From positions 38,205 to 102,204 of the forward strand of contig JACQFN010000005.1 of NCBI GenBank assembly GCA_016200045.1: a stretch of 64,000 nt of DNA. The letters run 5' to 3'. The notes beneath the pieces are model-generated. The model ran no database searches. It was given only the letters and a program-made list of their open reading frames with translations, and was not told the DNA's origin. Of this stretch, positions 15,651 to 39,646 are shown piece by piece. Position 1 is the stretch's first letter, and every line of letters starts with the position of its first letter. The DNA comes from Nitrososphaerota archaeon (GTDB lineage Archaea > Thermoproteota > Nitrososphaeria > Nitrososphaerales > Gagatemarchaeaceae). The position numbers and the translations under genes are program-made.

Positions 15651-15705
15651 CCCGACAGCTACACGCGAATCCATTAAGTAGAACTGTGCCCGTCGAGGTT
15701 CCGAA

Positions 15706-18471
15706 ATGGAAGGCCAGGTCAAGCTCCCGCTTCTGGACGACGTCCTGCCGGGGGGCCTGAGGTTCGGAGCGAATTACCTTGTAGAGTTCGAGCCGCAGTC
15801 TCTTTGGTACGAGGCGTCGTTCACCCTCTGCGCACAGGCCCTCCGGGAGGGGCAGAAGACGGACTACCACACGTTCACACGGCCTCCGGACGAGGTGAGG
15901 ACCGCCCTCTCGAAGCTGGGGATAGACGTGGAGCGGCTCGAGGAAGACGATACCTTCAGAATCTGGGACAGCTTCACCGTCCAGACGGGGATGGGCGAAG
16001 CCGCTCGGATAGGCAAGGCGACCCCGCGCGAGCGGGTAGACCTGCGGTCTGTCAAGATTGCTGACTGGGACAGAGGGGTGACGGCGGAAGTGGGCGGCGA
16101 AGTCCCTGACGTGGACAGGCGGAGACTGCACATCGACGACAACACGTCGATACTTCTCCAGTTCAACGACGAGAAGTCTGTGATAGAACACTTCCGGACT
16201 CTGACAGTCCCCTACGCCAGGAAGTTTGAGATGGCGGCGGTACACTCGATTCCAACTGGCATCTATTCCGAGGGGCTCTCGAGGCAGTTCGAGTCGTTCT
16301 GCGACGGGGTGATCGACCTCAGATCCCGCGAGGAAGGAGACAGCGTCGGCCATTTCATGAGACTGAGATTCGCCAGAGGTGCCGAGCACGACTCTCGATG
16401 GCGCCACATTGGGCTCCTTGGAAACGGGGAAGTGACCCGCACGGTAAGTCCGGCGAGCCCGGACCGACCCCTCTCATCGGACACGACAAGGAACCAGTAT
16501 TTCCCTTCGACGGGTACGCAGAGCGAAAGGAGGCTCGCGGCCATCATGTTCACCGACTTGGTGGGCTTCACTGCCCTCGCCCAGCGTGACGAAGACCTCG
16601 CAATGTCGGCCCTCGAAGGTCAGAGGAGGCTGGTGAGGCCTCTGCTCGCGAAGCACAGGGGTAGAGAGGTGAAGACCATCGGGGACGCCTTTCTAGTCGA
16701 ATTCGTCAGCGCGCTTGACGCCGTGAACTGCGCAATCGCGATTCAAGACGAGATGGCGGTGGAAAACGGGGGTCGGCCGGACAAGAGTAGGGTCATGATG
16801 AGGATTGGGATCCACCTGGGAGACGTGATACACTCAGGCACGGATGTGGCGGGGGACGCGGTCAACGTGGCATCGAGAATCGAGCCGCTCGCCCGTCCGG
16901 GTGGGATCTGTGTCACCGGTCAGGTGTACCAGAGCGTGGTGAACAAGGTCGGAAGGGGATTCAGGTCGCTCGGGTCCCCCTCCTTGAGGAACGTCGTCTC
17001 ACCCGTAGATGTGTTCGAGATCACCGCTTCGCATGAAGAGGGGGAGACACTCCCTCCGCCGGGCGGAGCTCCGGCCAGGAACAGGGTGGCCATACTTCCG
17101 TTCTCAAACATAAGCCCCGACCCGAAGGACGAGTTCTTCGCGGACGGCATGACCGAGGAACTGATCTCCTCAGTGTCGAGGACAGAGGGCCTAAGGGTGA
17201 TCGCAAGGACTTCAGTGATGAGGTACAAGGCCGAGGCAAAACCGGTGTCAGAGATTGGAAGAGAGCTCGGGGTAGGAAGCGTGCTGGAAGGTAGCGTGAG
17301 GAGGGCGGGGGACAAGATCAGGGTGACTGTCCAGCTCGTGGACGCTGTGACTGAAGAGCCGAAGTGGTCGGAAGACTACGACAGGGACCTGCGGGACATT
17401 TTCTCCATTCAGCAGGACATAAGCCAGAAGGTCGCTTCTGCCCTGAAGGTCCGCATCCTTCAGGCGGAGGACCAGCCGCGGGGGAAGGCCCAGACCTCGG
17501 ACCTGGAAGCGTACCAGTTCTACCTGAGGGGACGCCAGCTCTGGAGCAAGAGGACCGGGCCCGACCTGGCGAAGTCGGTGGACTTCTTCAAAGAAGCCGT
17601 CAGGATCGACCTTGGATACGGGAGGGCCTATTCCGGCTTGGCTGACGCGTACGCGACCCTGGCGCTCCTGGAAATCATGAAACCCGACGAGGCTTTCCCG
17701 AAGGCGAAGGCAGCGGTCCAGAAAGCTCTCGCCATCGACAACATGAGCTCGGAGGCTCACACTTCCCTCGGCCTGGTGAAGTTCCAGTACGACTGGGACT
17801 GGACCGGGGCGGAGGCGGAGTTCGTCAGAGCCATGGAGCTGAATCAGAACTACGCGCCGGCGCACCAGTTCTTCGCTGACTACCTGAAGGCGATGGGGCG
17901 GTTCGAGGAGGCCATTGGCGAAATGGAAAGGGCCAGGGAGCTCGACCCCCTTTCGCTTGCGATCAGCGCAGGGCTGGGGCACGTCCTCTACCTCTCGAGG
18001 CAGTACGACAGGGCGATCGAGCAGTACAGGAAGACCGTAGAGCTCGACCCGAACTTCATGCAGACCCACCTGTGGTTCGGGAGGCCCTACCTCGAGAAGG
18101 GGATGTACGGCGAGGCGATCTCTGAGCTCAAGACAGCTGTCGGCCTCTCAGGACAGAGCACCCTCGCGCTGGGGATGCTGGGCCACGGCCTGGCGTCGGC
18201 GGGACAAATGAAGGAGGCGAATGAGATACTCGGCAAGCTTTCGGATCGCGCGAAGGAGGCGTACGTCCCCTCATACTGGGTAGCTGCGGTCTACAACGGG
18301 ATGAAGGACAGGGACCGCACGATGGAGTGGCTGAAGAGAGCCTATGATGAGCGTTCGAGCTGGCTGGTCTGGGTCGGGGTCGAACCACGGTTCGACTGGC
18401 TGCGGGGGGACCCCGAGTTTGGGGCCATGCTCGGCTATATGAAGTTCCCTCCGACCGCGTTCAACCATTAA
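15706..18471 (+). CDS. multidomain signalling protein: degenerate KaiC/RecA-like domain, class III adenylate/guanylate cyclase, TolB-N-like module, TPR repeats
   Basis: N-terminus LLDDVLPGGLRFGANYLVEFEPQSLWYE is KaiC-like but lacks a GxxGxGKT P-loop. Cyclase motifs are IMFTDLVGFTAL, KTIGDAFLVEF, RIGIHLGDV and GDAVNVASRIE. Then ILPFSNISPDPKDEFFADGMTEELI, followed by multiple TPR units. Confidence 0.8.
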   Translation: MEGQVKLPLLDDVLPGGLRFGANYLVEFEPQSLWYEASFTLCAQALREGQKTDYHTFTRPPDEVRTALSKLGIDVERLEEDDTFRIWDSFTVQTGMGEAARIGKATPRERVDLRSVKIADWDRGVTAEVGGEVPDVDRRRLHIDDNTSILLQFNDEKSVIEHFRTLTVPYARKFEMAAVHSIPTGIYSEGLSRQFESFCDGVIDLRSREEGDSVGHFMRLRFARGAEHDSRWRHIGLLGNGEVTRTVSPASPDRPLSSDTTRNQYFPSTGTQSERRLAAIMFTDLVGFTALAQRDEDLAMSALEGQRRLVRPLLAKHRGREVKTIGDAFLVEFVSALDAVNCAIAIQDEMAVENGGRPDKSRVMMRIGIHLGDVIHSGTDVAGDAVNVASRIEPLARPGGICVTGQVYQSVVNKVGRGFRSLGSPSLRNVVSPVDVFEITASHEEGETLPPPGGAPARNRVAILPFSNISPDPKDEFFADGMTEELISSVSRTEGLRVIARTSVMRYKAEAKPVSEIGRELGVGSVLEGSVRRAGDKIRVTVQLVDAVTEEPKWSEDYDRDLRDIFSIQQDISQKVASALKVRILQAEDQPRGKAQTSDLEAYQFYLRGRQLWSKRTGPDLAKSVDFFKEAVRIDLGYGRAYSGLADAYATLALLEIMKPDEAFPKAKAAVQKALAIDNMSSEAHTSLGLVKFQYDWDWTGAEAEFVRAMELNQNYAPAHQFFADYLKAMGRFEEAIGEMERARELDPLSLAISAGLGHVLYLSRQYDRAIEQYRKTVELDPNFMQTHLWFGRPYLEKGMYGEAISELKTAVGLSGQSTLALGMLGHGLASAGQMKEANEILGKLSDRAKEAYVPSYWVAAVYNGMKDRDRTMEWLKRAYDERSSWLVWVGVEPRFDWLRGDPEFGAMLGYMKFPPTAFNH

Positions 18472-24818: not shown

Positions 24819-26294
24819 TTAGTTAGCGACGTCCAGGGGCTTGAACTTCTCGACGGTCTCCCGCAGCTCTTGTCCGAGGCGCTTCTTCCATGCCTCGAAC
24901 CCTGCCGGGGTCTCGGGGTAGGCCAGGTTGATGTCGACCAGAGAGGCGCTCTTCGCTACTGTGTACCTCAGCCCCCGCGCAAGGGAAAGCTGACTCAGGA
25001 CCCGGAACCAGAGGCCGGGGTTCATCAGACGCGCCCTGTTGAACTGCGGGTGCTTCCGCTCGGTGATCGCAGTGACATCCTCCTCGGAGAGGAAGTGCTT
25101 CATGCCGTAGTTGATCTGCTCGTTCGTGACAGTCTGCAGGTACCTTCGCAGTACCTCGAAGCTCGCCATTGGATACCCGTGGGTGTTCATGTACTCCACG
25201 TTGTACCGCCAGAGCGAGCCTTCTCCCGCGTCCCCTGCCTCGACCGCCTCGGCGACGACCTTCCCGAGAATGGTACCCCCGTAGATCGACGGGCTGATCC
25301 CCCCTGCATCGATCGGGCGCGGCATCCACGCCGAGTCCCCCACCACCGCGAACCCGTTGGCGACCATGCAGTCGTTGTGCCTCCTGACCGGGACCTGCCA
25401 GTTCCACTTCGTGTTCCCCGAGTCGCTGTCAGCATGGGGCTGCTCCGCCTTCTTGATCACAGGGTTGTCTGCCACGTACTTGTCGATCAGGCTCTGGAGG
25501 TTGTCGTTCATCTTGAACCTCCTGTTCCTCCGGTCGAGCCCGGACTTCGAAATGCCGAGACCGATGTTGACCTTCTTCTTTCCCTTCGGGAACACCCATG
25601 CGTACCCGGCTGGCGCGATGAACTGGTCCAGGTGAATGATGCAGTAGTCGGGGTCGAAGTACTCCCTCGAGTCCATCGCGGGTTCGAAGTCCATGATGTA
25701 CCGCCCGGTCCCGACCACGTCGTCCGGGTCGATCTCTTTTTCGATCATCGACGGGATGGGCAGAAACCTCCGCAGGACCGACGAGGAGCCGGTCGCGTCT
25801 ATCACTATCTTGGCTGTGTAGCTGAAGCCGGACCCGTCGGACTTCCTCCCGGAGACCCCGGTGATGTACCCTCCTTCCGAAGTCAGCTTCTCCGCAGTGG
25901 CGCGGAAGAGGAACTCGGTCCCGAACTTCCTCGCGTCGTCCACCTGGCGCCTTGGGGCCAGCTTCCGGTTGAACAGGTATCCCTCTCCCTCGAAGAGGAC
26001 CTTCGTCTTCCTGTCCGGGGAGTAGACGTACACCCCCTTCACCGGGTGCTCCAGCTCCGGAGGGCCGTACCTTATCCCGATGTGCTCCGCGAGGTAGTCG
26101 AGGCTCCGCTTGCTCGTCGCGTCCCCGCAGGTCCAGCCGTTGTGGGTCTTCTTCCCCGGCTCGCTCTCATGGTTCCTGTCGACGACGAGGACCCGGGCCT
26201 TCCCCTTCGAATTGTAACCGATCGACGCGGCCGTGATCAGACCGGCCATCCCCCCTCCGGCGATGACTACGTCGTAGTCAGGGTTCCTCATCAT
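24819..26294 (-). CDS. FAD-dependent oxidoreductase, geranylgeranyl-reductase family (long form)
   Basis: YDVVIAGGGMAGLITAASI dinucleotide-binding motif, internal VIDATGSSS, and GFAVVGDSAWMPRPIDAGGISPS. Confidence 0.7.
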   Translation of the reverse strand: MMRNPDYDVVIAGGGMAGLITAASIGYNSKGKARVLVVDRNHESEPGKKTHNGWTCGDATSKRSLDYLAEHIGIRYGPPELEHPVKGVYVYSPDRKTKVLFEGEGYLFNRKLAPRRQVDDARKFGTEFLFRATAEKLTSEGGYITGVSGRKSDGSGFSYTAKIVIDATGSSSVLRRFLPIPSMIEKEIDPDDVVGTGRYIMDFEPAMDSREYFDPDYCIIHLDQFIAPAGYAWVFPKGKKKVNIGLGISKSGLDRRNRRFKMNDNLQSLIDKYVADNPVIKKAEQPHADSDSGNTKWNWQVPVRRHNDCMVANGFAVVGDSAWMPRPIDAGGISPSIYGGTILGKVVAEAVEAGDAGEGSLWRYNVEYMNTHGYPMASFEVLRRYLQTVTNEQINYGMKHFLSEEDVTAITERKHPQFNRARLMNPGLWFRVLSQLSLARGLRYTVAKSASLVDINLAYPETPAGFEAWKKRLGQELRETVEKFKPLDVAN

Positions 26295-26347
26295 TAGTTC
26301 TGAACGCTACTAAAATCCTATATAAGAGCTTTGCCGCAGGGGCCTCG

Positions 26348-27097: not shown

Positions 27098-27739
27098 CTA
27101 CTCGCTTGTGAAGATGGACTGGCTCGAAGTGTTCGGGACTTCGGGGAGCGATTCGCTCATCCTCTTCTCGGCGATGGCTGCGGCTTCCGAGAGGATCTTG
27201 TTCGCCTCTTCGCTGTTCTCGGCCTGGTAGAAGGTCGCGCCCGTTATCTGGCCGACGTCCCCCATTATCGAGGTCAGTTGTGCGCCGATCTCTCCCAGTG
27301 CGCCCTGCGCATCAGGCATCGCTTCGCCAAGAGTCGTCCTGACGTTCCTAATCACCCCGATTGCCGGGGCGAGCGTAGCCGCGAAGTCCCCGATGTCGGT
27401 GACCGTCTGTAGGCGAGTCGTGATCTGCTCTAGGGCGATCTTCGACTGCATGACGATCTTCTGCATCTTTCGGACTTCGGCGAGCTCGTTGGAGTACGCC
27501 TTGGATGTCTCCTGGTCGTGAGCCTGTACGGCGGCCACCGTCTTCTTGAAGATGGAGCTTTCGCGCTGCTTCAGCCTGTTCATGGCCTGGTCCAGACGGT
27601 TGACCTCCCCAGTGAGCTGCTGGGTGGCCTTCTGGATTTGCGGCCTCATAGGCTGGGGACCGCGAATGGTTTCGCGGGTCCTCTTCCCGAAGCTCTCTTT
27701 CTCCTGAGCCTTCCATCCCTTTTCGAACTTGGTGCTCAA
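27098..27739 (-). CDS. ESCRT-III / Snf7 (CdvB)-like protein
   Basis: 213 aa, all-helical. Basic N-terminal half and acidic C-terminal half. IQKATQQLTGEVNRLDQAMNRLKQRESSIFKKTVAAVQAHDQETSKAYSNELAEVRKMQKIV...ALEQITTRLQTV... follows the Snf7 heptad pattern. Confidence 0.5.
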   Translation of the reverse strand: MSTKFEKGWKAQEKESFGKRTRETIRGPQPMRPQIQKATQQLTGEVNRLDQAMNRLKQRESSIFKKTVAAVQAHDQETSKAYSNELAEVRKMQKIVMQSKIALEQITTRLQTVTDIGDFAATLAPAIGVIRNVRTTLGEAMPDAQGALGEIGAQLTSIMGDVGQITGATFYQAENSEEANKILSEAAAIAEKRMSESLPEVPNTSSQSIFTSE

Positions 27740-27846
27740 CGTGATATCCGACGATGATATCGGCCGAAGCGAACATACCCGACGCTGACAAGAACACTTG
27801 ATGTGCTGGTGAAAGATGCTTCACAATCGCCCGTCCGCAGAAGGCC

Positions 27847-28353: not shown

Positions 28354-29472
28354 CTAACGGTCAAATTCTACAGGCCACAGATTTTCAGACCAATAGATGA
28401 CTGGGATGTCGGCGACGTGCGCGTTCCTGAGTATGTGAGGGAGGACCCTCAGGTTCTTCAGGCTCGGCGTAGAAATCTTCAGCCTATAGGGCCTCGGCGA
28501 CCCGTCGCTCACGATGTGGTAGCTCATGTCCCCCCTCGCAGCCTCCGTCCGGGAGAAGACCTCCCCCGCGGGGACCCTGGGCTGAGGGCCGAGCTTCAGG
28601 CGGACCGGGCCCTGCGGTATCTGCTTTAACGCCTGCCTGATTATCTTCACCGACTCCCTCATCTCGAGGAAGGCGACGTAGGCGCGGGACCAGGAGTCCC
28701 CCGCGTCGAGGGTGGAGACCGAGAAGTCGAGTTCCGGGTATGCGCAGTACGGCTCGTCCTTCCTCAGGTCGTGCTTGACTCCTGAAGCTCTAAGGACCGT
28801 TCCCGTGGCCCCCAGGCGTATGGCGTCCTCCTTCGTAAGGACCCCTACACCTTCTGTCCGCTGGAGGAATATCGGGTTCCTCAGGAAGATCTTGTCGTAT
28901 TCGTCGAGGCGCTTTTCGAACCAGTCGCAGGTCTTCAGCCCCTTCTCCACCGCGAATGAGGGCATGTCGTTCCTCACCCCTCCGGGGATGATGTAGGCGA
29001 AGGTCACCCTCGCCCCCCCGATCCTTTCGGCGAAGTCGATCCAGTAGTCCCTGTCCCCCATCATCCACTCGATGATGGTCGAGTGGCCCACGAATATCCC
29101 GAGTATCCCCAGGAAGTACATGTGGGAGATTATCCGGTTCGCCTCGGACATTATCGTGCGGAGGTACTGAGCCCTGGGCGGGATTGCGCTGTTCATCAGT
29201 TCGTCGACCCCGAGCGCGTACGGTAGCAGGATGTTGGAGCTGTCTAGGATGACGGGGCGCTCAAGGTGCGGGACGTTCTGGATGTAGTTGCGGTATTCCC
29301 CCATCTTCTCCTCACCGCGGTGGACATAGCCAGGGTCGGGCTCGGAGCGGACGAGGTAGTCTCCGTCGAGCCAGAGCTTGATGCGGAAGTGGCCTGCCCC
29401 CGGGTGCTGCGGGCCGAGGGACACCGCCATCACCCTGTCTGCGTCTGGCACGAACTCGGACTCGGTGGTCAT
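28354..29472 (-). CDS. nuoD: NADH-quinone oxidoreductase subunit D (49-kDa subunit)
   Basis: SLGPQHPGAGHFRIKLWLDGDYLV...PGYVHRGEEKMGE. Start set to ATG 29472, immediately after the nuoC stop. The longer ORF prefix is S/T/R-rich junk. Confidence 0.9.
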   Translation of the reverse strand: MTTESEFVPDADRVMAVSLGPQHPGAGHFRIKLWLDGDYLVRSEPDPGYVHRGEEKMGEYRNYIQNVPHLERPVILDSSNILLPYALGVDELMNSAIPPRAQYLRTIMSEANRIISHMYFLGILGIFVGHSTIIEWMMGDRDYWIDFAERIGGARVTFAYIIPGGVRNDMPSFAVEKGLKTCDWFEKRLDEYDKIFLRNPIFLQRTEGVGVLTKEDAIRLGATGTVLRASGVKHDLRKDEPYCAYPELDFSVSTLDAGDSWSRAYVAFLEMRESVKIIRQALKQIPQGPVRLKLGPQPRVPAGEVFSRTEAARGDMSYHIVSDGSPRPYRLKISTPSLKNLRVLPHILRNAHVADIPVIYWSENLWPVEFDR

Positions 29473-29473
29473 C

Positions 29474-30025
29474 TCATCGCCCCGGGGAGACGTAGTCCTT
29501 GCGGAGCGGGGGGATGTCGTTCCAGTCCTCGGGGAGGAAGAGGTGAGACTGGTTCGGGTGACCCTGGAAGTTGATCCCGAACATTTCGTGGGTCTCCCGC
29601 TCGTTGTAGTCGGCCGCGAGCCAGACGTCGATGAGCGTTGGAGCGACCGGGTCGTCTCGCGGGATCCGTTCCGCCATCGCAAGGATGAAGTCTTCGAGCC
29701 CTGGCTTCGAGGCGGAGCCGACGAAGTAGATTATCTCGAACTCGTTCTTCCCGATCCAGTCGACGGCGCTGACCGTGTCCAGATGGTCGAACCCGAGTTC
29801 GTCCCTGACGAAGGTCCCGAGGTCCTTGACCTTCGAGGAAGGGGCGGTGACCTTGAGGCGACGCTCGCGCATGTAGTCGACCTTGACTTCCGGGAACTTC
29901 GAGGCGATCTTCGCTGCCAGCTCCTTTGCGCGGACCGGCTCAGCCTTCGGCGCGGGTGTGGCCGGTGGGGAGGCGGGAGGATTAGGCTGCGGCGCCGCTG
30001 CGGCCGGCTGCTTGGTCCCGCTCAT
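29474..30025 (-). CDS. nuoC: NADH-quinone oxidoreductase subunit C (30-kDa subunit)
   Basis: FDHLDTVSAVDW...EFEIIYFVGS...ERETHEMFGINFQGHPN. Its ATG overlaps the stop of the upstream DCC gene (ATGA). Confidence 0.85.
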   Translation of the reverse strand: MSGTKQPAAAAPQPNPPASPPATPAPKAEPVRAKELAAKIASKFPEVKVDYMRERRLKVTAPSSKVKDLGTFVRDELGFDHLDTVSAVDWIGKNEFEIIYFVGSASKPGLEDFILAMAERIPRDDPVAPTLIDVWLAADYNERETHEMFGINFQGHPNQSHLFLPEDWNDIPPLRKDYVSPGR

Positions 30026-30435
30026 GTAGACGACCACGCCGCGTACATCCCGGAAGGTTCCGCGCCTTTGGCGTCGCCAAGCCCGCAGGAATATCCGTGC
30101 AGCCGGGAGGCGATGCCGTAGGTCCAGCGCGCCAGGGCCATCCCGAAGGGGGCGCTCCTGAAGAGTGCCGCCGGGACGCGGCCCGCGGGAAGAAGTGAAA
30201 GGAGGTCAACCATCGCGTCTCCCCCGCTGGAGACCCTCCCGTCTGCCCCGACCATGTGCGAGCAAGAGAACCGGATGGAGGGAGGGATTCCGTCGAGCAG
30301 CCCCTGTAGTGCCGCGTCGGCTAGGGGGACGAACTCGACCCTGTGAGATGCGTCGAAGAACTCCACGGCCCGTTTCAGCCTGGTGCAGATTCCGCAGTCG
30401 GAGTCGTAGAGAAAGAGAGGCTTCCTTGGGTCCAT
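30022..30435 (-). CDS. DCC-family (DUF393) thiol-disulfide oxidoreductase
   Basis: LFLYDSDCGICTRLKRAVEFFD is the DxxCxxC motif of the DCC1-like family. The gene is embedded between nuoB and nuoC. Confidence 0.65.
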   Translation of the reverse strand: MDPRKPLFLYDSDCGICTRLKRAVEFFDASHRVEFVPLADAALQGLLDGIPPSIRFSCSHMVGADGRVSSGGDAMVDLLSLLPAGRVPAALFRSAPFGMALARWTYGIASRLHGYSCGLGDAKGAEPSGMYAAWSST

Positions 30436-30441
30436 CGGAAT

Positions 30442-32097
30442 TCAAACCCCGCTGAGGCTCGGCGATCTTCGGATCTTTTCCTGGAGGAGGACTATCCCCT
30501 GGAGGAGGGCCTCGGCGCGCGGTGGGCAGCCGGGTACGTAGACGTCGACAGGGATCACGTCGTCGATCCCTCTCAGGACGTTGTAGGAGTCGAAGTAGAG
30601 GCCGCCGGTGATCGCGCAGGCGCCCATTGCAATTACATATTTTGGTTCGGCCATCTGGTCGTAGATCAGTTTCAGCCTCGGGGCTAGCTTGCGGGTGACG
30701 GTCCCCATGACTATGAGGAGGTCGCACTGGCGGAGGGAACCGAAGGCCTCGAGGGCGCCGAACCTTTCGAAGTCGAAACGGGCTCCTGCCGCTGCCCCGA
30801 CTTCAACAGAACAGTTGTGGACGACGGCGTTGGAGACCAGGTAGGTGTTGTCAGATGTTTCGAGGTTCATAACGTTCCCGGAGTAGTCGACCGCTGCAAT
30901 CTCCCTTATCGGTACGGCTATGTAGTCGGGCATGACTTTGAAGTCCGAAATCTTCCCTTCGGATTCCATCACCGAAACGTCGTACGCATCATGGGTGCGC
31001 ACCGTCCTCCCCAGTGTCTTCGAGACCCCTCCTTTGCGTCCTTCTTTGATGTGTGCGAACTGTCCCAGCCTGGCGTACGCGAGCTGAAGCTGAAGGGCGA
31101 GCACCTTCGACGTCGTGACGGCCCTTTGGTGAACCGGGCCCCTGAGGTCGATCGCCTTGTTGCCATCGCCTTCCAGATATCCCCTGATGAACGCCTTCAA
31201 GATCTCCAGGTCCTTGTGATAGAGTATGAAGTCGGGGATACGCTTCCCCTCTGCGAGGTGGCCGCACCACTCCCTCATGGCCCTCGCGAGAATGCTCGAG
31301 GAGAACCTCACCACCAGGGACGTCTCCCTTTCCCTGACGTGCGGGTGGTAGCCGAGTGACTCAATTGTCGATTTGACCCGGCCGGCCAAGGCGTCCTCGT
31401 CGTGACCTAAGGCGAAAGAGACATCGTGGTTCTCCGTGGACCAGCCCTTGGCAGTGTAGAGTCCCAGCATCCACGCAGTCTCGCCGTTGACCGGAAACTG
31501 TACCGGCGGGTTTTCCCCTCGTCCTCTGACGATGTTCAGTCCTCGGGCCTTCGCAAAGGGTTTGAGGTCCAACGCCGTCACGTCAATCGACCCTTTCACT
31601 CGCGGTAACAGCAGGCAGTCGTGCCTACCGGACGGGTACGTGAATCGCCCGTTGACCTTGACCGGGGGCGACTCGGTCAAGTCCCCTGCCTCCTTCCAGA
31701 GTGTCGCGCCTGAATACGATCCCTTGCCGCCGCTCATCCTTCGCTCAACCGTCAGGATAGGGTGTTCGGGCGTCACCGAAAATGGGAGCATCCCCCTTCC
31801 TTTGATCCGTATCAGCTGGCCACTGAACTCCCGGTCGAAGGTCTGCGTCACGTTGACCAGGCCGCCAGCCCCTGTAACCTCGTCCCCGATTCTGTAGTCG
31901 GCGATAGGCTTGTTGTCCCCAGGGATTACCGTGTCCGGTGGGACGCAACACGCCGTCTCCAGGTGGACAGGCCAGAGCGAGTAGAGCCGCCCCCAGTTGG
32001 CGAGGTAGCGGAGCGGGTCCCCGATGGCGTACTGGAGGATGTCGTCGACTTTGCCTACAAGGACCTGGAAGGCTCCGGTCTTCTGGACGGCTACCAC
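30442..32097 (-). CDS. nuoB: NADH-quinone oxidoreductase subunit B (PSST / 20-kDa) interrupted by an intein
   Basis: The exteins give SLWPVHLETAC|CSVEVGAA..., MGACAITGG and VPGCPPR, which are the four Cys ligands of cluster N2. The 551-aa precursor becomes 173 aa after removal of the insert. Confidence 0.9.
   Translation of the reverse strand: MVAVQKTGAFQVLVGKVDDILQYAIGDPLRYLANWGRLYSLWPVHLETACCVPPDTVIPGDNKPIADYRIGDEVTGAGGLVNVTQTFDREFSGQLIRIKGRGMLPFSVTPEHPILTVERRMSGGKGSYSGATLWKEAGDLTESPPVKVNGRFTYPSGRHDCLLLPRVKGSIDVTALDLKPFAKARGLNIVRGRGENPPVQFPVNGETAWMLGLYTAKGWSTENHDVSFALGHDEDALAGRVKSTIESLGYHPHVRERETSLVVRFSSSILARAMREWCGHLAEGKRIPDFILYHKDLEILKAFIRGYLEGDGNKAIDLRGPVHQRAVTTSKVLALQLQLAYARLGQFAHIKEGRKGGVSKTLGRTVRTHDAYDVSVMESEGKISDFKVMPDYIAVPIREIAAVDYSGNVMNLETSDNTYLVSNAVVHNCSVEVGAAAGARFDFERFGALEAFGSLRQCDLLIVMGTVTRKLAPRLKLIYDQMAEPKYVIAMGACAITGGLYFDSYNVLRGIDDVIPVDVYVPGCPPRAEALLQGIVLLQEKIRRSPSLSGV
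30814..31947 (-). mobile_element. intein (378 aa) with LAGLIDADG homing-endonuclease domain inside nuoB
   Basis: Starts CVPPDTVIPGD (block A Cys1). Has TPEHPIL (block B TxxH) and the DOD motifs WMLGLYTAKGWS and FIRGYLEGDGNK. Ends NVMNLETSDNTYLVSNAVVHN, followed by the +1 Cys. Confidence 0.85.
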
Positions 32098-32459
32098 AGC
32101 TCCCGCCTACCTGCGAGGGAGAGGGCGAACCCCATCGGGATGAAGAGCATTCCCATGAAAATCGTGAGCATCCAGTCGGAGGAGAGGCCGAGGCCGAGGG
32201 GCTGGTAGGCCGCTGCCCAGGCGTAGAGGAACATCGCAAGGACGTCGAAGACTATGAACATCAGGAGATATGCGTAGTACTGCATCATGTAGTGCATCTT
32301 GCCCGCCCCGACAGGGACCTGGCCGCACTCGAAGGGGGCGTTCTTTACCGGGTTCGGCCTGTTGGGACCGAAGAGCTTCGGGAGCAGGACGACCGGGAGG
32401 GTGAACACCACCCCGACGAGGCCCATCACGAAGACCGAGCCGATGTCCCCGAAGAGCAT
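32091..32459 (-). CDS. nuoA: NADH-quinone oxidoreductase subunit A
   Basis: Three TM helices and NAPFECGQVPVG. Start set to ATG 32459, with a TATA box 28 nt upstream. The ORF prefix up to 32624 is not NuoA-like. Confidence 0.85.
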   Translation of the reverse strand: MLFGDIGSVFVMGLVGVVFTLPVVLLPKLFGPNRPNPVKNAPFECGQVPVGAGKMHYMMQYYAYLLMFIVFDVLAMFLYAWAAAYQPLGLGLSSDWMLTIFMGMLFIPMGFALSLAGRRELW

Positions 32460-32483
32460 TACATGCTTCGCGAGCACTTTATG

Positions 32484-32491
32484 ATATTTAA
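32484..32491 (-). promoter_or_regulatory. TATA box (TTAAATAT on the minus strand) of the nuoA-D operon
   Basis: Centre lies about 28 nt upstream of the nuoA ATG, consistent with a leaderless transcript. Confidence 0.45.
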
Positions 32492-32645
32492 GATTGGCGA
32501 CGATGTAAGGAGGAGTCTGAAGAGATGAGGCCTGTCCTTCGTTACAGGCGGGAGGGGAAATTGCCTGCGGAAGGACTTCGCTGGGGACTTCGACGGTGAC
32601 GGCTACTTCTGTCTCTGTCTGCACCTCGGGAACCTGGCGGTTCGG

Positions 32646-38143: not shown

Positions 38144-39646
38144 TCAGAATCCGGCCGGTATCCCGTCTCCTCTCATGTCGCAGACCGCCTTCCTGTAATG
38201 GTCTGCGACCGCAACCGCGTGGCAGACCCCGGTCCGCCCAGGGAAGGGGAGGTTCCTCACTTCGTAGAGACTTGAGTCGACAGCGTCGTACCCCCGTTCT
38301 GCGATCACCGTCCTCCCTCCGCTCCACAGGAACCTCTGGTGCTCCACCGCCTGCTCGAGCGGCATCCCGTAGTCGACAAGGTTCGTGATGAAGAGGGTGT
38401 GCTGCATCGGTCGATACTCCCCCCCGCTCGCCCCGATCCCGACGAAGGGCCGATCGTCCTTGGACAGTATGACCGAAGAGAGCGTGTGGAGGGGCCTCTT
38501 CCGGGGCTCTGCTTTGTTGGGCCCGCTCAGACTGAAGCCCGCCCCCCTGTTGTTGAGCATGAGCCCGGCCTCTGGGACGAAGACCCTTGAGCCGAAGTGA
38601 TGGAAGAGGCTCTGAATCCCGGACACGATGTTTCCTACCGCGTCGGCTACGGAGAACGCCGTGGTATCTCCTCCGCTGAGGCTTGCGGGAACGCCGGAAG
38701 CCCGATTCGATGATTCCATGAACTCTTTGACGTCGACGGGGCCGAATCTGGGATCCCCGAGAAGCTCGTCTCTCCGGCCGTAGGCCAGCTCCGCGGCCTT
38801 CATTGTGCGAGTGATCCTCTCTTGCGAGAGGGGACCAGCGCCTTCCAGCCCGGCCTCTGCCAGCTGCTTGAGCATTAGGAGGCTGGTGACGCCCATGCTG
38901 TTCGGCGGCACTTCGTGGACCTTCGTCCCTCGGTAGTCGAAGGTGACCGGCTCCACCCATTCCGGCGTAAAATCGAAATCGTCGAGCTCCGCCCTGACTC
39001 CTCCAGCCTGGAGGGCAGAGCAGATTCTTTCCGCGGGCCATCCTTTGTAGAAAGCATCAGGCCCTCCTTCGGAGACTTCAGAGAGCACCCTTCCCAAGGC
39101 CTCCTGCCTTATCCACTCCCCCGGCATGGGGGGAGTACCTCTCGGCGCGAAGACACGCTTCGCCGAATCCGACAGAGATTCGAAGCTGGACGAGGTCGAC
39201 CTGCAGAGAGCCTCTCCGGCTGGGAAACCGTGAGTAGCGTATCCGGTCGCCGGGCGGGCCAGGTCCTTGAAGGGCATCGACCCGAGTTTCTGGTGCATCG
39301 ACCAGACCCCGGCGATGAACCCCGGGACCGTGCATGTTAGAGGGCCATAGGTCGGGACACCGTTCCCTTTCGCGCTGATCGATTCGACGCCTATGCCGGA
39401 AGGGGCCCAGCCGCTCGAGTTCAGGCAGTGAACTCTGCCTGTCTTCGCCTCGTACAGCATCCCGAAAAAGTCCCCTCCTATGCCTCCAGCTGGATGGAAG
39501 GTCACCGCGAGGGAGAGGCTGGTGGCGACGGCGGCGTCGAATGCGTTCCCCCCCTCCCGCATGGCTTCGTAGCCTGCAAGGGAGGCGAGGGGCTGCTCGC
39601 TGGCAACGGCCGCGTTTTCGCAGATAAGGGTCCTGACGAGGCCCAA
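38144..39646 (-). CDS. ggt: gamma-glutamyltransferase family protein
   Basis: GGNAFDAAVATSLSLAVTFHPAGGIGGDFF, and nucleophile region GGDTTAFSVADAVGNIVSGIQSL. TTG start. Confidence 0.85.
   Translation of the reverse strand: MGLVRTLICENAAVASEQPLASLAGYEAMREGGNAFDAAVATSLSLAVTFHPAGGIGGDFFGMLYEAKTGRVHCLNSSGWAPSGIGVESISAKGNGVPTYGPLTCTVPGFIAGVWSMHQKLGSMPFKDLARPATGYATHGFPAGEALCRSTSSSFESLSDSAKRVFAPRGTPPMPGEWIRQEALGRVLSEVSEGGPDAFYKGWPAERICSALQAGGVRAELDDFDFTPEWVEPVTFDYRGTKVHEVPPNSMGVTSLLMLKQLAEAGLEGAGPLSQERITRTMKAAELAYGRRDELLGDPRFGPVDVKEFMESSNRASGVPASLSGGDTTAFSVADAVGNIVSGIQSLFHHFGSRVFVPEAGLMLNNRGAGFSLSGPNKAEPRKRPLHTLSSVILSKDDRPFVGIGASGGEYRPMQHTLFITNLVDYGMPLEQAVEHQRFLWSGGRTVIAERGYDAVDSSLYEVRNLPFPGRTGVCHAVAVADHYRKAVCDMRGDGIPAGF

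Follow-up and report, generated by a model that had tools for sequence, protein, structure and literature searches.

The nuoB gene of a Nitrososphaerota archaeon, which encodes a core subunit of respiratory complex I, is interrupted by what we read as a canonical class-1 intein. The element carries a LAGLIDADG homing endonuclease and separates the two neighbouring cysteines of the iron-sulfur (Fe-S) cluster N2 motif. The gene lies within a stretch of 64,000 nucleotides (positions 38,205 to 102,204 of contig JACQFN010000005.1, GenBank assembly GCA_016200045.1), referred to herein as the window. Its 551-residue product contains an insert of 378 residues (residues 51–428). We assign a probability of about 0.88 to the reading that this insert is such an intein and that the window copy is splicing-competent, endonuclease-dead and vertically inherited. 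A full-length Hint and LAGLIDADG intein at this position had first been proposed from the letters of the window without database searches (the sequence-only reading); the predicted fold, the catalytic residues and the clean excision described below agree with that proposal. The reading draws on the architecture of the gene, the modelled fold, residue conservation, purifying selection, naturally empty alleles and one tract that looks like co-conversion.

An insert separates the tandem N2 cysteines of NuoB

The precursor is encoded on the reverse strand of the window, and its parts are listed here by window position.

30442–32097, reverse strand: nuoB precursor open reading frame, 551 codons plus stop, with a GTG start and a 7-nt overlap with the end of nuoA.
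31948–32097, reverse strand: N-extein, residues 1–50, ending ...HLETAC; Cys50 is the first tandem N2 cysteine, at the position of Nqo6 Cys45.
30814–31947, reverse strand: intein, residues 51–428, its 378 residues being the modal family length.
31567–31947, reverse strand: Hint N-terminal lobe, intein residues 1–127, made of beta strands and including Cys1 and block B (placed by the secondary structure of an AlphaFold2 (AF2) model and by fold matches).
31945–31947, reverse strand: Cys51, which is intein Cys1, codon TGC.
31762–31773, reverse strand: block B, Thr109-Pro-Glu-His112 (TxxH), with Thr and His invariant in 102 of 102 relatives.
31042–31548, reverse strand: LAGLIDADG homing-endonuclease domain, intein residues 134–302 (PF14528, E = 6e-8; PI-PkoII profile match, E = 2.8e-10; I-DmoI fold matches).
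31441–31473, reverse strand: first LAGLIDADG motif, WMLGLYTAKGW, with Lys217 (AAG, 31447–31449) at the position of the catalytic acid.
31159–31191, reverse strand: second LAGLIDADG motif, FIRGYLEGDGN, with Asp311 (GAT, 31165–31167) kept.
30814–31029, reverse strand: Hint C-terminal lobe, intein residues 307–378, with blocks F and G (...VMNLETSDNTYLVSNAVVHN), placed by the alignment of relatives and the AF2 model.
30811–30819, reverse strand: C-terminal splice junction, His427-Asn428/Cys429; Asn428 is codon AAC (30814–30816), and Cys429, codon TGT (30811–30813), is the +1 nucleophile and the second tandem N2 cysteine, at the position of Nqo6 Cys46.
30442–30813, reverse strand: C-extein, residues 429–551 plus stop, with Cys494 (30616–30618, GAC motif) and Cys524 (30526–30528, GCPP).

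The translation contains every motif on which the sequence-only reading had relied, namely TPEH, two dodecapeptides, VVHN/C (a slash marks an insertion or splice point throughout), GACAITGG and GCPP, and codon mapping places the insert limits it had given, 30814–31947, at exactly residues 51–428. Outside the insert the protein is recognisably NuoB. The Pfam domain Oxidored_q6 (PF01058) covers residues 429–536 (E = 3e-26), with LAGLIDADG_3 on residues 300–360, and the NCBIfam NuoB model NF005012 reaches 187 bits, above its cut-off of 116. All four N2 ligand cysteines are present (CC...GAC...GCPP), and the gene sits in a nuo operon. The overlap of nuoA with nuoB is found also in four relatives (L002, L004, L005 and L007).

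We found that about 45 solved NuoB, PSST and NdhK chains align to residues 19–52 of the precursor and then from residue 429 onwards (to 547), with chain numbering unbroken across the gap. When residues 51–428 were deleted in silico, the resulting 173-residue product gave a single ungapped alignment through ETACCSVE (...HLETACCSVEVG...), and the best E-value against the solved chains improved from 1e-40 to 1.6e-48. The predicted junction peptide of the spliced protein is LYSLWPVHLETACCSVEVGAAAGAR. In the alignment with Nqo6 of Thermus thermophilus (2fug_6), in which chain residues 23–160 pair with spliced residues 28–166, Cys50, Cys429, Cys494 and Cys524 fall at Nqo6 positions 45, 46, 111 and 140 by alignment numbering. 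These four positions are the N2 ligands in the structures of the Sazanov laboratory. The insertion of 378 residues is therefore clean and its excision rebuilds the CC motif, as had been anticipated, and the residues at -1 and +1 of the intein both map to ligand positions of N2. Colinearity of the host is also evident from natural intein-free alleles with identical exteins.

The insert has the fold and the invariant residues of a class-1 intein

The insert and Cys+1 were modelled in AF2 from an alignment of 73 sequences. The model has a mean predicted local distance difference test score of 89.9 and a predicted template modelling score of 0.89, and shows a beta-rich N-terminal lobe, an alpha/beta core and a beta-rich C-terminal lobe. 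The top Foldseek matches of this model in the PDB are all intein-endonucleases, led by TliVMA (7qsu; E = 2.4e-18, query TM-score (TMq) 0.70) and including PhoVMA, PI-SceI, PI-PkoII and PI-PfuI; against solved inteins the E-values range from 2.4e-18 to 6e-10 and TMq reaches 0.71. The endonuclease core of the model is matched by I-DmoI and I-Tsp061I. At the level of sequence, PI-PkoII is the only PDB entry that the insert matches.

Residue conservation was counted in an alignment of 102 NuoB relatives that carry a single intein. Cys50, Cys51, Thr109, His112, His427, Asn428 and Cys429 are each conserved in 102 of 102. Intein and exteins are both under purifying selection, with ratios of nonsynonymous to synonymous divergence (dN/dS) of 0.14–0.27 in the Hint domain, 0.09–0.25 in the endonuclease and 0.07–0.18 in the exteins, values that are approximate because dS is near saturation.

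The window copy has lost a catalytic acid of the endonuclease

The sequence-only reading had described the endonuclease motifs as intact, and this does not hold for the window copy. Its first dodecapeptide, WMLGLYTAKGWS, carries Lys217 where relatives carry a catalytic Glu, a substitution that had been overlooked. Glu217 is present in 96 of 102 relatives and Asp311 in 100 of 102, and the Lys217 codon, AAG, is one transition away from GAG. In the profile of the endonuclease domain, position 217 aligns with Asp218 of PI-SceI (LLGLWIGDG) and with the Glu of the YVSEG motif of PI-PkoII, and Asp311 aligns with PI-SceI Asp326. Both PI-SceI residues are known from mutagenesis to bind metal and to be catalytic. 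The two LAGLIDADG helices of the window copy thus do not both end in a catalytic Asp or Glu, and its endonuclease is a family member by descent but, judging from this alignment, probably not by activity.

Loss of a catalytic residue is not confined to the window. Lys, Gly or Gln at position 217, or Gly at position 311, occurs in 7 of the 102 proteins. Since the other Lys217 carriers are only 69–72% identical to the window protein, and Gly or Gln at 217 and Gly at 311 occur elsewhere, endonuclease knock-outs recur independently, as a homing-cycle model predicts.

The composition of the window intein resembles that of its host gene. Its GC content is 0.594, with 0.767 at third codon positions (GC3), compared with 0.626 and 0.792 for the exteins and a GC content of 0.596 for the window, and the intein family is about 36% diverged. 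A recent horizontal arrival was considered and rejected, as the composition matches both the exteins and the window. The suggestion that the element is recent or still active consequently divides in two: ongoing mobility is supported for relatives, whereas Lys217, the host-like GC3 and the divergence of the family speak against it for the window copy, which is best read as a long-resident, splicing-competent and probably endonuclease-dead element that is neither recent nor currently mobile.

The intein is widespread among relatives, and some carry a second one

Inteins at the CC site are not peculiar to the window, a point that the sequence-only reading had left to a wider search. At least 119 relatives, each counted as one protein cluster at 90% identity, carry the same in-frame intein at the same codon, with 64–78% identity and total lengths of 548–555 residues. 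Those with a source name are metagenome-assembled genomes (MAGs) of Nitrososphaerales, Nitrososphaerota or Thaumarchaeota. The closest genome match to a single-sequence query against genome contigs, L001, is a partial one from a groundwater Thaumarchaeota MAG of 60% GC. The order nuoA, nuoB with its intein, nuoC, nuoD is kept in relatives, with citrate synthase upstream wherever the fetched locus extends that far. In close relatives the site is filled by the same intein or cleanly empty; a collinear insertion that does not splice, which would have spoken against an intein, was not found among them.

This distribution bears on the idea that an error or chimera of assembly placed an intein-like reading frame inside nuoB. 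The window and most of the relatives do come from metagenome assemblies. The same architecture at the same codon nevertheless recurs in the at least 119 clusters, drawn from independent NCBI, JGI, ENA and Logan assemblies with some contigs longer than 1 Mb, and intein divergence rises with extein divergence (r = 0.43, Mantel p = 0.001). We regard an artefact as extremely improbable.

Among 120 listed NuoB relatives, 18 have a second insert, which brings the total length to 743–964 residues. We refer to the intein at the tandem cysteines as a and to this second one as b. The b intein is about 409 residues long with canonical LAGLIDADG motifs, has the ends C[x]RGD...NGQLVHN, and lies between MGA and C(A/S)ITGG, directly before the third N2 ligand cysteine; in P0113 it takes the form of a 192-residue mini-intein. 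Its carriers include P0008, P0009, P0011, P0015, P0042 and P0101, as well as the locus L005:3001-5889, and among the listed relatives it always accompanies the a intein. The corresponding site in the window, at Cys494, is empty. An origin of b by duplication of a was rejected, as the two have only the LAGLIDADG core in common (E ~1e-11). Because nothing beyond this core is shared, a and b represent distinct intein lineages, each of which invaded nuoB at a different ligand of one cluster.

Empty alleles and a co-conversion-like tract point to homing in the family

A search with the spliced extein recovered many intein-free NuoB proteins of 173–177 residues that are 83–93% identical to the window exteins, and filled and empty alleles occur at 98–100% extein identity. 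On a neighbour-joining tree of the exteins of 230 sequences, a short and weakly resolved tree on which counts of changes are rough, the a intein requires at least 35 gains or losses (mean for shuffled data, 77). The b intein requires 16 changes for 17 carriers, a scatter no different from random. Intein and extein distances show the correlation given above; at the protein level the intein has diverged about 2.4 times more than the exteins, and intein dS exceeds extein dS in every pair for which it can be estimated. This pattern fits mostly vertical descent with some exchange.

LAGLIDADG endonucleases typically have targets of 14–40 bp. One pair of alleles is close enough to reveal what happens around the insertion point. 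The intein-bearing L002 (JGI) and the intein-free L003 (ENA) share 98.6% identity over 1207 bp, and 13 of their 17 differences, all synonymous, lie within the 77 nt from nuoB nt 123 to 199, around the insertion point at nt 150 (binomial P = 5e-13); outside this tract the two contigs are 99.6% identical. The tract looks as if exon sequence flanking the insertion had been co-converted, either during homing or during its reversal by an empty allele. Judged on eight junction sequences, the event may have been a gain or a loss of the intein. As 77 nt exceeds the typical LAGLIDADG target, selection for a resistant site alone is the poorer explanation. Sporadic distribution, empty sites and co-converted flanks were thus found for the family and not for the window copy.

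Observations that weigh against the intein reading

A number of results count against the reading proposed here. In Pfam and NCBIfam, the models for Hint, intein-splicing and intein-terminus domains (PF14890, PF07591 and TIGR models) do not match the protein, and even at E <= 10 the isolated insert matches no Hint-type profile of Pfam, which gives only LAGLIDADG_3 and Oxidored_q6. The weak NCBIfam matches, well below their cut-offs, are to whole intein-bearing proteins (RpoA'', IF-2, Tes and GyrA). The profile check suggested by the sequence-only reading was therefore nominally negative, and the Hint identity comes instead from the fold and the invariant splicing residues. Since several related inteins of the same family do match PF14890, the missing match looks like a gap in sensitivity. 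In a manual alignment to the consensus, Asn411, invariant in the family, takes the block F position that usually holds Asp; the conserved Asp416 nearby could substitute. Splicing of the window precursor is a prediction, and a single change from an acid to Lys might leave the endonuclease some residual or nicking activity.

The homing signature, for its part, comes from a single informative pair of metagenome alleles. Five further pairs (L005/L006, L007/L008, L005/L008, L007/L006 and L010/L009) are uninformative, with only 87–91% DNA identity despite near-identical proteins, and two scans of metagenomes with DNA patterns returned no further alleles in the L002/L003 background, giving nothing or only alleles about 82% identical. 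Lastly, no second NuoB and no other intein was found within the window, and the remaining genome lies outside its view.

Several of these points would also be expected if the insert were decayed or unable to splice, the window nuoB being a pseudogene or paralogue while another copy supplies complex I. The lack of a Hint-specific hidden Markov model (HMM) match, the mutated catalytic residue of the endonuclease and the limited view of the genome are all compatible with such decay. Against this, the frame is open over 551 codons, the intein has the modal length of its family, and the splicing residues are all intact at positions that are invariant. Exteins and intein alike are under purifying selection, the gene occupies its conserved place in a nuoA-B-C-D operon, and the window holds no other copy. 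We consider a decayed gene very unlikely, and retain the reading of a splicing-competent intein.

Related inteins are enriched at CxxC motifs

When the insert alone was searched against 1.84 billion representative proteins, 4079 matches were obtained, 243 of them below 1e-30, and most span the full 1–378 as internal segments of proteins of all lengths. Hosts other than NuoB include SufB/D, thioredoxin, dCMP deaminase and GNAT proteins, with more than 120 different host sites, and Nitrososphaerales is the annotated source of at least one of these hosts, a thioredoxin. In a sample of representative proteins (P0241–P0389), the family, recognisable as CVPPDT...NAVVHN/C, has C...HN/C boundaries at 115 of 124 sites (~91%). 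We found that 41 of the 124 sites lie at C-x-x-/C, compared with about 4 expected from a Cys frequency of 2.9%; examples are the WCGP/C of thioredoxin and many zinc-ribbon-like CPxC motifs. The intein family may prefer metal- and redox-active cysteine motifs as targets.

The sequence-only reading had also raised redox- or metal-conditional splicing, an idea that is plausible in principle. In its rival form, the NuoB intein would be a domesticated switch, in which conditional splicing gates the maturation of complex I on redox state or Fe-S availability and the endonuclease is dispensable. A disulfide among Cys50, Cys51 and Cys429, or a metal bound by these thiols, would hold the precursor until conditions are reducing. 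The active site does bring three cysteines together (-1, 1 and +1), and a redox trap of this kind, a disulfide between an N-extein cysteine and Cys1, was shown experimentally for the MoaA intein of Pyrococcus abyssi (Callahan et al. 2011, as summarised in PMC10663303). The recurrent substitutions at the endonuclease site (7/102), set beside invariant splicing residues, would suit a switch, as would the CxxC enrichment and the gene for a DCC1-like thiol-disulfide oxidoreductase that follows nuoB directly in the window. Yet that gene is absent from this position in relatives, and the intein itself is patchy, with intein-free alleles in near-identical hosts that evidently do well. In addition, about 94% of copies keep the catalytic acids of the endonuclease, and this domain evolves under purifying selection, which is what a selfish homing element would show. 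The patchiness and the preserved endonuclease speak more for a selfish element than for a domesticated switch, which we think unlikely.

Doubtful to the same degree is a broader version, in which splicing at the N2 ligands gates complex I maturation across widespread soil and groundwater Thaumarchaeota. Here the cysteine triad at -1, 1 and +1, joined in some strains by the second intein at the third ligand, would respond to thiol redox state or to Fe-S or metal supply, and the intein lineage would be specialised for CxxC and CC motifs. If true, this would amount to an unrecognised targeting rule and would make cofactor loading dependent on splicing across many proteins.

Proposed route of splicing and homing

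Established intein chemistry, applied to the residues identified above, suggests the following route for a selfish intein at this site. Because 378 residues part the tandem cysteines, the 551-residue precursor would be unable to form the N2 site. Cys51 would undergo an N-to-S acyl shift at the Cys50-Cys51 bond, aided by Thr109 and His112 of block B, and the thioester would be transferred onto Cys429. Cyclisation of Asn428, aided by His427, would then release the intein, and an S-to-N shift would leave an ordinary peptide bond between Cys50 and Cys429. The product would be a 173-residue NuoB with ...ETACCSVE..., able to take up N2 and to join NuoC and NuoD.

In the wider family, the released intein would recognise and cut intein-free nuoB at the CC-coding site and be copied in through recombination repair, which would explain both the patchy presence among near-identical hosts and the co-conversion tract. 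The window copy would represent a late stage of this homing cycle, with splicing kept, cleavage lost and inheritance vertical; it is most likely an endonuclease-dead resident, since Lys217 has replaced the first catalytic acid.

Genes around nuoB

The neighbouring nuo genes and an accessory gene are as follows.

32091–32624, reverse strand: nuoA (PF00507).
30022–30435, reverse strand: DCC1-like thiol-disulfide oxidoreductase, 137 residues, with a DCGIC motif, between nuoB and nuoC (PF04134, E = 3.6e-12).
29474–30037, reverse strand: nuoC (PF00329).
28354–~29562, reverse strand: nuoD (PF00346); nuoC and nuoD together span 28354–30037.

The nuoA open reading frame as listed has 177 residues, compared with 122–123 in most relatives, and Oxidored_q4 is matched only from residue 78 onwards; translation probably begins at an internal codon. 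The DCC1-like gene lies in a local GC peak of about 0.70 and is absent at this position in L002, L004, L009 and L010. Its place beside a NuoB whose maturation would need three reduced cysteines may be coincidence, and a connection with the intein is speculative.

The nuo cluster of the window consists only of nuoA-B-(DCC1)-C-D. Beyond nuoD lie an open reading frame with no Pfam match (27101–27820) and a geranylgeranyl-reductase-like flavoprotein gene (24822–26306) in place of nuoH-N, so the membrane-arm genes must lie elsewhere. In two relatives (L005:7661-8845 and L009:4647-5522, both on the reverse strand of those loci), the opposite strand just past the end of nuoD encodes a free-standing LAGLIDADG_3 protein. 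The L005 protein has 394 residues and a helix-rich N-terminal region. By tblastn it has no homologue in the window, and it is unrelated to the HMM of the NuoB intein. Elsewhere in the window, at 15682–18468 on the forward strand, a 929-residue open reading frame joins a KaiC-like ATPase N-terminus, an adenylate/guanylate cyclase domain and C-terminal tetratricopeptide repeats, an unusual signalling architecture; local HMMs detected no intein in it.

Relation to known inteins and significance

The closest structural counterparts of the NuoB intein are the archaeal and yeast LAGLIDADG inteins of the VMA and Pol types (TliVMA, 7qsu/7qss; PhoVMA, 7qst; PI-SceI, 1vde; PI-PkoII, 2cw7; PI-PfuI, 1dq3), which likewise have a Hint domain split by a two-motif endonuclease. 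They use the same Cys1, TxxH and HN/Cys+1 chemistry, and the catalytic acids of the NuoB family align with PI-SceI Asp218 and Asp326. Unlike them, the NuoB intein resides in a respiratory Fe-S subunit and not in an ATPase or polymerase, is only 11–16% identical to the solved inteins, has Asn in block F where Asp is expected, and in its window copy carries Lys at the first catalytic acid.

Other inteins are known in Fe-S metabolism. The SufB intein of Mycobacterium tuberculosis also sits in Fe-S machinery and makes the activity of its host depend on splicing, and one of the closest relatives of the window intein outside NuoB is in a SufB/D protein, P0243. SufB, however, is a scaffold for cluster assembly, whereas the NuoB intein interrupts the motif that binds a cluster in the final respiratory enzyme and has a ligand cysteine on either side, at -1 and +1. 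The MoaA intein shares with it an Fe-S enzyme as host and an N-extein cysteine near Cys1; in NuoB the partner would be at -1 or +1. The partner cysteine in MoaA reportedly lies at -3. Several independent sites at conserved motifs, with variable occupancy, are a feature both of NuoB, with sites a (C/C) and b (GA/C), and of the haloarchaeal MCM protein, a host of multiple inteins (PMC10643990). In contrast to MCM, NuoB is not a replication protein, both of its sites are at ligand cysteines of one Fe-S cluster, and the resemblance between its a and b inteins is confined to the endonuclease core.

Inteins are best known from proteins of replication, repair and nucleotide metabolism. The sequence-only reading had offered NuoB as an undescribed host, which stands in so far as no report of an intein in NuoB or complex I was found among about 8.3 million open full-text papers, a scope that takes in neither subscription literature nor InBase. 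The main text of the survey of Novikova et al. 2016 names neither NADH nor Thaumarchaeota, and a supplementary list could still name NuoB. The sequences themselves are not new: hundreds of such NuoB proteins are already public, mostly annotated as plain NuoB, and one JGI entry (P0015) has been automatically annotated 'intein/homing endonuclease'. The novelty lies in the host and the insertion point, namely a core subunit of complex I with N2 ligands at -1 and +1, to which some strains add another intein at the third ligand; the mechanism is ordinary.

As the intein sits at the N2 ligands of a core complex I subunit, respiration in these archaea would depend on protein splicing, with two splicing events needed in carriers of the second intein. 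The three cysteines at the splice junction make redox- or metal-conditional splicing cheaply testable, and the family is a possible source of Cys-junction inteins for protein engineering. The enrichment at CxxC, if confirmed, would be a new rule for where inteins settle. Nitrososphaerales populations with this intein include alleles that are empty, filled or doubly filled against near-identical backgrounds, and so offer a natural system for the homing cycle in uncultured soil archaea.

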